NCBI RefSeq assembly: GCF_013167455.1
Contig: NZ_CP038328.1
Length of the DNA stretch: 64,000 nucleotides
Reading direction: 5' to 3' (one strand)
Source of the DNA: Escherichia coli O157:H7
GTDB lineage: Bacteria; Pseudomonadota; Gammaproteobacteria; Enterobacterales; Enterobacteriaceae
Made by a program: the position numbers
In this document: positions 3,001 to 6,000 of the stretch, piece after piece
How positions within the stretch are numbered: the stretch's first letter is position 1
How the letters are laid out: each line of letters begins with the position of its first letter

Positions 3001-6000
3001 AAACAAACGCACGCAGGGATCACTGTATGGTGAATGGGGGAACGTTGGAGCGTTTTCCAGTAATTCGCAATTTACACCGGGAGCTTACTGGACAAGTGAA
3101 TCTGATGATTACAGTCGGCACTACTATGTGCAGATGCTAACCGGTATGACCGGAAGCGACGCTGATTCCAGCCCCCAACTGACCGCCTGCCGTAAATCAC
3201 TTTAATTTCAGCAGTTGTTATTAAAGGATACCCTTTTACGAGGGTATCCTTTCAGACTGATAACAAACGCTACATTGCCGGATGTGCTGCGCTTATCAGG
3301 CCTATATAACCCCTGCAATATATTGAATTTATTGTTTTTGTACCCCAGCCGGCATAAACGACTACTCAAGAAACTCAACAGCAACCGTTGATGTCAGCCA
3401 GACCCCGTTTTCCGCTTGCCAGAAAGGGATGCCTCGTTTCGCCATTTCCTGTGCTTTGACGGTTAAGACAACCGGCGATCCGTGTCTTGCTCCCACTTTG
3501 CGTGCCGTTGCTTCATCAGCAGAGAGATGCACGTAATGACGATCCCCTGCAATCAGCCCCTGTTTTTTTATCTCGTCAAGGAAACGGCTTGCCGTACCGT
3601 GGTAGAGAAACTGTGGCGGTGTTTTTTCGGCAAAGGAAATAGCGACCTGCGAAGTCGAATGCCCCTGAACCGCGCGGATGCACCTACCATCACTGGAATA
3701 ACTAAAACGCTTTTATCGCTGGTTGCGACCACGGTATCCAGCAATGCACGGGTTAATCGCTTGCCCGCTTTTTGGGCACAAAGTATGAGCTTATCGATAT
3801 TCGCCCATCCTTCACGGTCCAGTACGATACCAATCGCCTCCGGTTTGTGTCGGAGGACAAAACTTAAAAACTTGCTCGTATCCGCCAGCTCTTTTTCGTT
3901 GTACTTTGCCATCGCGTTTTCGTCCCTGGATTTTCTGTTTTTATTTACCAATGTCATTGTCACTGGGTTTATGAATTTTCTGCAACTCAATCCTGCGCAG
4001 AACCTTTTCCACACAGCGTAATTTTTCCCCTATGCAAAAAACGCATAGCCAGAAACATACTTGCATTTTCCCCATACCCACATGGCTGATAAGGTTTTTA
4101 AGTTCCAGGAATTTTCCTGGCTCAAGCAACACACAAACACAAAAAAACAATGGGGATTGTTATGACACAACAAGGGGATGCTGTAGCCGGGGAGCTGGCG
4201 ACAGAAAAAGTGGGCATTAAAGGGTATCTGGCTTTTTTTCTCACCATAATCTTTTTTTCCGGTGTTTTTTCCGGAACAGACAGCTGGTGGCGCGTTTTTG
4301 ATTTTTCCGTTCTGAACGGATCGTTTGGGCAACTGCCTGGTGCGAATGGAGCCACCACCTCATTTCGCGGCGCGGGTGGCGCGGGGGCTAAAGATGGCTT
4401 TCTCTTTGCGCTGGAGCTGGCACCGTCAGTCATTCTCTCTCTGGGGATTATTTCAATTACCGATGGTCTTGGTGGATTACGCGCCGCGCAGCAGTTAATG
4501 ACACCTGTGCTAAAACCGTTGTTGGGCATTCCAGGGATCTGCTCGCTGGCGCTGATCGCTAACTTGCAAAACACTGATGCCGCCGCCGGTATGACCAAAG
4601 AGCTGGCGCAGGAAGGTGAAATTACCGAACGCGATAAAGTGATTTTCGCCGCATATCAAACCAGCGGTAGCGCCATCATCACCAACTACTTCTCTTCCGG
4701 CGTCGCGGTGTTCGCCTTTCTGGGCACGTCCGTAATCGTACCTTTAGCCGTCATCCTGGTGTTTAAATTTGTCGGAGCCAACATTTTGCGCGTCTGGCTT
4801 AACTTCGAAGAACGTCGCAACCCAACGCAAGGAGCGCAAGCATGACAACTCAGGTCCGCAAAAACGTCATGGATATGTTTATCGATGGCGCGCGCCGTGG
4901 CTTTACTATCGCCACGACCAACCTGCTGCCAAACGTGGTGATGGCGTTTGTCATCATTCAGGCGCTGAAAATTACCGGCCTGCTCGACTGGGTGGGGCAT
5001 ATCTGTGAACCCGTAATGGCGCTGTGGGGATTACCCGGTGAAGCGGCAACCGTCCTTTTAGCCGCATTAATGAGTATGGGCGGCGCAGTCGGTGTTGCCG
5101 CCAGTCTGGCAACCGCTGGCGCATTAACCGGTCACGATGTCACCGTTTTACTGCCCGCGATGTATTTAATGGGCAACCCGGTGCAAAATGTCGGTCGCTG
5201 CCTGGGGACAGCCGAAGTGAATGCCAAATATTACCCGCATATCATTACGGTCTGCGTGATTAACGCATTGCTGTCGATCTGGGTTATGCAGCTTATTGTT
5301 TAACAAGGAGTTACCATGATTGATTATACCGCAGCCGGTTTTACCCTGCTGCAGGGAGCGCATTTGTATGCGCCGGAAGATCGGGGAATTTGCGATGTCC
5401 TCGTCGCTAACGGCAAAATTATCGCCGTTGCCAGTAATATCCCTTCTGACATTGTACCGGACTGCACGGTTGTCGATCTCAGCGGGCAGATCCTCTGCCC
5501 AGGTTTTATTGATCAACACGTCCATTTGATTGGCGGTGGCGGCGAAGCAGGTCCCACGACGCGCACGCCGGAAGTGGCGCTAAGTCGCCTGACGGAAGCG
5601 GGCGTCACGTCAGTGGTTGGTCTGCTGGGCACCGACTCTATCTCTCGCCACCCGGAATCCCTGCTCGCCAAGACCCGTGCGCTCAATGAAGAAGGCATCA
5701 GCGCCTGGATGCTGACCGGCGCTTATCATGTCCCTTCCCGCACCATTACGGGTTCCGTGGAAAAAGACGTGGCGATTATCGATCGTGTGATTGGCGTGAA
5801 ATGTGCCATCTCTGATCACCGTTCTGCCGCACCGGACGTTTATCACCTGGCTAATATGGCGGCAGAATCCCGCGTTGGCGGTTTGCTCGGCGGTAAACCT
5901 GGCGTCACCGTGTTCCACATGGGCGACAGTAAAAAGGCATTACAGCCTATTTATGACCTGCTGGAAAACTGCGATGTGCCGATCAGCAAGCTGCTGCCGA

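Follow-up and report, generated by a model that had tools for sequence, protein, structure and literature searches.

The kptA gene of typical Escherichia coli O157:H7 is best regarded as a lineage-fixed pseudogene with a one-base deletion in a short A run

Introduction

In Escherichia coli O157:H7, the kptA gene for an RNA 2'-phosphotransferase of the Tpt1/KptA family is interrupted by a frameshift at a short homopolymer. Is this break an inherited loss-of-function mutation, an artefact of sequencing or a device by which the cells regulate the gene? We addressed this question in a stretch of 64,000 nucleotides from an O157:H7 genome (RefSeq assembly GCF_013167455.1, contig NZ_CP038328.1), which we call the window and whose coordinates are used throughout. 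A sequence-only reading of the window had left the choice between a genuine slippage mutation and a homopolymer sequencing error.

The orthologue in E. coli K-12 is KptA (yjiI, 184 aa), which shares its neighbourhood with the O157:H7 gene, kptA being divergent from yjiH-yjiG-iadA. For the K-12 enzyme, either NAD+-dependent removal of internal RNA 2'-phosphates or complementation of a yeast tpt1Δ mutant has been shown in literature cited in PMC6097658. For E. coli, no pathway leading to internal RNA 2'-phosphates is known (PMC6097658). That kptA is a pseudogene in O157:H7 is already known, as it is annotated as such in RefSeq; in the literature that we searched, we found no discussion of it. 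Here we conclude that the break is almost certainly an inherited loss-of-function mutation, and neither an artefact nor a regulatory device.

Results

Over its 64,000 bases, the window aligns with EDL933 (NZ_CP008957.1) without gaps and with 3 substitutions, and the 801 bp from 3300 to 4100 are 100% identical in dozens of O157:H7 genomes. The kptA pseudogene lies on the minus strand at 3362-3912 (551 nt, compared to 552 nt for the intact allele of O55:H7 and early O157), the span that RefSeq labels 'kptA, frameshifted' in EDL933. Its ATG start codon (3912-3910) opens 67 native codons (M1-K67, 3712-3912, minus strand) that end in ATSDK and cover positions 4-62 of the 177 in the Pfam model PF01885. 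Translation then runs into an out-of-frame tail of 47 aberrant codons, ending in QAVSLTR, and a TGA stop (3568-3711, minus strand), so that the predicted product as encoded has 114 aa, 67 native and 47 aberrant. Based on the repaired translation and its alignment with the Tpt1 structure 7KW8, the native frame continues as an open segment from Arg69 to Glu183 and a TAG stop (3362-3709, minus strand), which is not translated in frame. Inserting one T into the run at 3711-3714 creates a single ORF of 183 codons with its stop at TAG 3364-3362, and this ORF matches PF01885 with E=1e-47. The proposal of a 1-bp frameshift at this 4-T run in a Tpt1/KptA-type gene was thus correct. The extent of the N-terminal part had been misjudged: it had been given as 87 codons, with the gene reaching up to 4014, whereas the start is at 3912 according to the EDL933 RefSeq annotation and leaves 67. 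An alternative ATG at 3957, used by some PGAP records, would give 82 native codons, and a mechanical GTG start at 4014 would give 101. A promoter scan upstream of the kptA ATG returned one weak promoter-like match that was not above shuffled sequence.

At the other end of the gene, the TAG stop codon (3362-3364, minus strand) takes the place of the TGG (Trp184) that K-12-type alleles have ahead of their TAA (alignment columns 550-555), so even when intact the O55/O157 allele is one residue shorter. Homology to most other E. coli genomes ends within a few bases of this TAG (query positions 62-65). Downstream of kptA, O157 has the inverse autotransporter gene iatD, whereas the K-12-like strain that we aligned has yjiJ directly. 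Positions 1-3205 of the window (plus strand; ORF 392-3205) are the 3' part of iatD, itself a pseudogene in typical O157:H7.

The lesion itself is simple. On the plus strand it reads TTTT (3711-3714), flanked by C3710 and A3715, which is four A's (A4) on the coding minus strand; the ancestral run of five (A5) sits in GAT AAA AAG CGT, encoding D66 K67 K68 R69. We aligned the window kptA with the alleles of O55:H7 strain USDA5905, O157:H7 strain 4276 and one K-12-like strain. A comparison with related kptA genes had been proposed along with the frameshift, and it gave a clear answer: over 552 bp, the window gene departs from the USDA5905 and 4276 alleles solely by a 1-nt gap in the run of A's, and this gap turns GATAAAAAGCG into GATAAAAGCG. 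The extra T is present at this position in O55:H7, LSU61 and 4276. When the region was repaired to five T's, the resulting 802-mer was 100% identical in O55:H7 strains USDA5905, DEC5A and DEC5B, in the sorbitol-fermenting (SF) O157 strain 493/89, in LSU61 and in a few O157:H7 cattle isolates. Because this identity extends to O55:H7, 493/89 and LSU61, A5 is ancestral and A4 is derived. By comparison, K-12-type alleles differ from the window kptA at 15 nucleotides within the 552 columns that run to the O157 stop, 14 of them by substitution and one through the single-base gap.

An 81-mer that contains the four-T run had an exact match in 286 of 5,426 complete E. coli genomes, and a 35-mer specific for A4, built so that its 28-base seed has to span the run, matched the same number. 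Every serotype-labelled genome among the 35-mer matches listed is O157 or O157:H7, and in the 5,426 genomes this probe found the A4 allele nowhere beyond the 286 carriers. These carriers were sequenced independently and include EDL933, EC4115 and Xuzhou21 as well as cattle, food and patient isolates of several continents, and RefSeq labels kptA 'frameshifted' in all A4 genomes that we opened (EDL933, EC4115, Z563, AUSMDU00002545, F6321 and F8092B). A single kptA frame is kept in about 5,100 of the other E. coli genomes. The gene thus differs from the intact orthologue of its closest outgroups (USDA5905 and 4276) only by the lesion, and the same lesion is present in many genomes of one lineage and absent elsewhere. 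The locus is therefore best filed as a lineage-fixed unitary pseudogene rather than with the Tpt1 enzymes. The gene has also been lost in another way: the clade-9 O157:H7 strain F3113 (clade according to Manning) has a deletion of 1,950 bp, equivalent to window positions 2244-4193, that takes the 3' end of iatD, the whole of kptA and the start of yjiH, and represents an independent loss. The 801-bp region has no match at all in 36 of the 5,426 genomes.

To place the deletion in time we can use two neighbouring lesions. The iatD frameshift affects a poly-C tract that precedes the first base of the window by about 1.86 kb, where EDL933 has one C more than O55:H7 and LSU61, and F6321 has yet a further C; iatD is intact in O55:H7, 493/89, LSU61 and 2013C-4465. 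Between fimE and fimA, at about 22010 of the window, O55:H7, LSU61 and F3113 have 16 extra bases (ATGATTTTTGTCGTTT), and the fimE-fimA spacing in the annotated coordinates of 493/89 equals theirs. The window and the A5 clade described below both lack the 16 bases; we take this to be the fim switch-region deletion described for O157:H7. Thus iatD is intact and the fim deletion absent in O55:H7, 493/89 and LSU61 (for fim in 493/89, judged from the annotated spacing), 4276 and its relatives have both of these lesions with an intact kptA, and EDL933-type genomes have all three. Since the 4276 clade combines the iatD and fim lesions with an intact kptA, the kptA deletion is the youngest of the three.

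Within typical O157:H7, A5 is confined to eight genomes: 4276, 9234, 2159, 2149, 1130, Gim1-1, NE92 and NCCP 13918, seven from cattle and one from a human. A 55-mer on a private SNP in uxuA (window 12603) matched exactly these eight genomes, all A5. SNP alignments of about 40 kb around kptA, first with 11 genomes and then with 14, contained only SNPs compatible with a tree: private to single lineages or small sub-clades, common to typical O157:H7, or at the level of the outgroups. Twelve SNPs are common to all typical O157:H7, A4 and A5 alike, and three are private to the A5 group (represented by 4276, Gim1-1 and NCCP 13918). Beyond the indel itself, the 14-genome alignment had no SNP that unites the A4 genomes.

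According to Weinroth et al. (2023; PMC10758439, supplementary table 1), Gim1-1, NE92 and 2149 are tir 255 T, belong to Manning clade 7 and carry stx2c only. These three strains share a truncation of mdfA with F6321, F6667, 2571, DEC4E and 7636 (PMC10758439). We found that the 'truncation' is an expansion of a pentanucleotide repeat from (GGTGT)2 to (GGTGT)3, at about 1,008,994 in the EDL933 record, which frameshifts mdfA, and that F6321 has the A4 allele of kptA. A probe for three copies matched 35 O157-type genomes, namely the eight A5 genomes and 27 others. Nine of these 27 were directly listed as A4 (F6321, AUSMDU00002545, 319, 350, 7784, ERL05-1306, NZRM4165, 1613 and NCCP 13914), and none of the 27 was among the listed A5 matches of the repaired 802-mer. 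All four combinations of the two loci therefore exist: A5 with two copies in LSU61, A5 with three in the eight-genome clade, A4 with three in F6321 and others, and A4 with two in EDL933. This requires at least one extra slippage or recombination event.

Which of the two loci changed more than once? The flanking SNPs do not order the lineages. In a 39-kb alignment of four genomes around mdfA, no SNP joined Gim1-1 with F6321 or F6321 with EDL933. Over the kptA and mdfA regions together (about 76 kb), typical O157:H7 lineages have 2-5 private SNPs per roughly 37-39 kb, and no SNPs were found on deep internal branches. The radiation of typical O157:H7 looks star-like, and small regions such as these cannot order its lineages. 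A 9-bp indel in yjiN was considered as a third character and dropped, as the short allele is present in all typical O157:H7, including the tir-A strain F8092B. The mdfA repeat was also rejected as the deciding clade marker: it is prone to homoplasy, and the three-copy probe matched three other, more divergent genomes (97.8% identity) in which the repeat is expanded as well.

We favour, with some reservation, a single kptA deletion after the eight-genome clade had branched off first, because the mdfA repeat expanded independently in those three other genomes whereas the kptA run changed nowhere else in E. coli. It is clearly less probable, though not negligible, that the eight clade-7 genomes are true revertants, the frame having been exactly repaired by a slip of +1 from A4 to A5. 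What is left of the probability falls to parallel kptA deletions or to recombination.

A further possibility is that the A run is a contingency locus, a reversible on/off switch of kptA in which A4 and A5 interconvert often. Both alleles do occur within typical O157:H7, and the four-gamete conflict with mdfA permits one reversion or parallel deletion. The conflicting marker is itself a pentanucleotide repeat, however, with its own independent expansions, and at most one extra event is implied. A hypermutable tract with scattered, recurrent switching is not what we see: a run of 4-5 nt is far below the length of known phase-variable tracts, beyond the 286 carriers A4 is absent from the remaining genomes, roughly 5,100 in number, and within O157:H7 the two states follow the clades perfectly (8 versus 286) with no mixed clade seen. 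We consider such a switch highly improbable. A recurrent mutational hot spot was rejected on the same result of the A4-specific 35-mer.

The consequences for the protein are best seen by comparing the repaired with the encoded product. The repaired ORF scores 421.6 bits against the NCBIfam equivalog NF002012 (cutoff, 233), whereas the encoded 114-aa product scores 143 bits, below the cutoff, and aligns only with model positions 1-68 of 184. Taken separately, the N-terminal ORF matches PF01885 with E=2e-12 and the C-terminal fragment with E=2e-10, so neither match is due to chance. Members of the family with solved structures are those of Runella slithyformis (7KW8), Clostridium thermocellum (6E3A/6EDE) and Aeropyrum pernix (1WFX). 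Repaired KptA aligns end to end with the Runella protein (E=5e-44), and its R21, H22, R69 and R125, which the K-12 enzyme shares along with the PF01885 domain, align with R16, H17, R64 and R119. Replacement of any one of these four residues of KptA by alanine abolishes complementation of yeast tpt1Δ (Sawaya et al. 2005, as reported in PMC6097658), and the C-terminal region of Tpt1 is implicated in NAD+ binding (PMC6097658).

The frameshift sits between Lys67 and Arg69. Arg21 and His22 are therefore kept in the translated product, whereas Arg69, Arg125 and the C-terminal two-thirds of KptA are absent from it. Compared to a Tpt1 of solved structure, the encoded O157 polypeptide is Tpt1-like up to residue 67, with only two of the four essential residues and none of the C-terminal region. 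The locus thus descends from a member of the Tpt1 family and no longer encodes one: the full-length match above the curated cutoff is missing, and the four essential residues are not found together in one polypeptide. Without Arg69, Arg125 and the C-terminal two-thirds the product should be inactive, and judging from its sequence the A4 allele of O157:H7 would not yield an active enzyme.

Could an active enzyme still be obtained by recoding, through a programmed -1 frameshift or transcriptional slippage at the A run, or from two separately made halves? The surroundings of the lesion are rich in A (GAU AAA AGC), and neither half of kptA has a further mutation compared to the intact allele. The zero frame lacks an X XXY YYZ heptamer, however, and a shift would require tRNA-Lys to leave AAA and pair with UAA instead. 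Transcriptional slippage requires A/T runs of roughly 9 or more, and here there are four A's. A slippery site in a gene that depends on it is expected to be conserved in orthologues; here the frameshift is not, since the other E. coli genomes, about 5,100, read the gene in one frame. The absence of further decay is what one would expect in an O157:H7 that is very young and radiated in a star-like manner. As for a split enzyme, past the lesion the first ATG, GTG or TTG in the native frame is GTG 3532 (Val128), the sole internal start, which opens an ORF of just 56 aa that begins past Arg125. This also limits the view that both parts of the gene are intact but in different frames: both pieces are recognizable as parts of the family domain, but the C-terminal one cannot be started in a useful place. 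We rejected recoding and the split enzyme on the site sequence and the lack of a suitable internal start codon, and the chance that either restores KptA seems very slight.

The weakest explanation, that the strain truly has five A's and an intact kptA, can be dismissed with near certainty. Single-base homopolymer indels are a common artefact on some platforms, and eight O157:H7 genomes do have five A's, but the run is only 4-5 nt long, the identical A4 allele recurs in 286 complete assemblies that many laboratories produced from various sources, and A5 within typical O157:H7 coincides exactly with the eight genomes that carry the independent uxuA SNP, which random error would not yield. Of the two readings left open at the start, the genuine mutation stands and the sequencing error falls, on the allele counts, the RefSeq 'frameshifted' labels and the SNP-defined A5 clade.

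Discussion

The kptA break in the window appears to have had a simple history. In an ancestor of most present-day typical O157:H7, replication slippage would have removed one A from the A5 run at Lys67-Lys68. Translation would since then shift frame after Lys67 and terminate 47 codons further on, and the resulting 114-aa product would be incapable of NAD+-dependent 2'-phosphate removal. The loss was presumably tolerated because no source of internal RNA 2'-phosphates is known in E. coli, and the allele would then have been carried along clonally, probably as a neutral change. That the gene is dispensable is supported by the independent deletion in F3113 and by the 36 genomes without a match to the region.

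Lesion aside, the gene is still highly identical to K-12 kptA; it differs in the one nucleotide missing from the A run, which leaves it with 67 native residues. The descent of O157:H7 is marked by further lesions of the slippage type. The iatD poly-C frameshift, the 16-bp fim deletion and the mdfA GGTGT expansion are, like the kptA lesion, small and clonally inherited indels that disable or alter backbone genes. Those in iatD and fim map to the same 40 kb as kptA and share its polarity, both loci being intact in O55:H7, 493/89 and LSU61, and the kptA deletion is younger than either.

It follows from the sequence that most O157:H7, the reference strain EDL933 included, would be without a working RNA 2'-phosphotransferase. 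On its own this carries little weight, and it fits the idea that bacteria can do without KptA/Tpt1, for which no substrate is known in E. coli. Should the clade-7 subgroup turn out to be true revertants, this would mean that KptA activity had been selected for in these genomes and that a bacterial Tpt1 has a physiological role, and would be a rare hint of a selectable KptA function. In practical terms, annotation pipelines should retain kptA as a pseudogene and leave the homopolymer as it is instead of 'correcting' it. The A4/A5 difference is also a clean single-site marker that separates the 286 typical O157:H7 genomes from the clade-7 subgroup of eight, O55:H7, SF O157 and LSU61.

Some other features of the window may be of interest. 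Using the names of the EDL933 RefSeq annotation, a large defence-type island extends from about 29636 to 59465. Its larger part (about 29636-55780) contains genes for a UvrD-like helicase, three giant DEAD/DEAH helicases, a 4.9-kb class I SAM-dependent DNA methyltransferase and a protein of the STY4851/ECs_5259 family, and is followed by a type II Zorya system (zorA2-zorB2-zorE, about 55992-59465). Beyond the Zorya system there is a gene for a phosphorothioated-DNA-binding restriction endonuclease. A direct repeat of 245 bp with 93.5% identity is found at 26344-26588, in the nanM region, and at 59689-59933, where it is a partial N-acetylneuraminate epimerase fragment beside the Zorya genes. 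The two copies may mark the edges of an inserted defence island. At 27162-27728, adjoining nanM and nanC, there is a truncated sialate O-acetylesterase gene that is missing its C terminus and is annotated as a pseudogene in EDL933.
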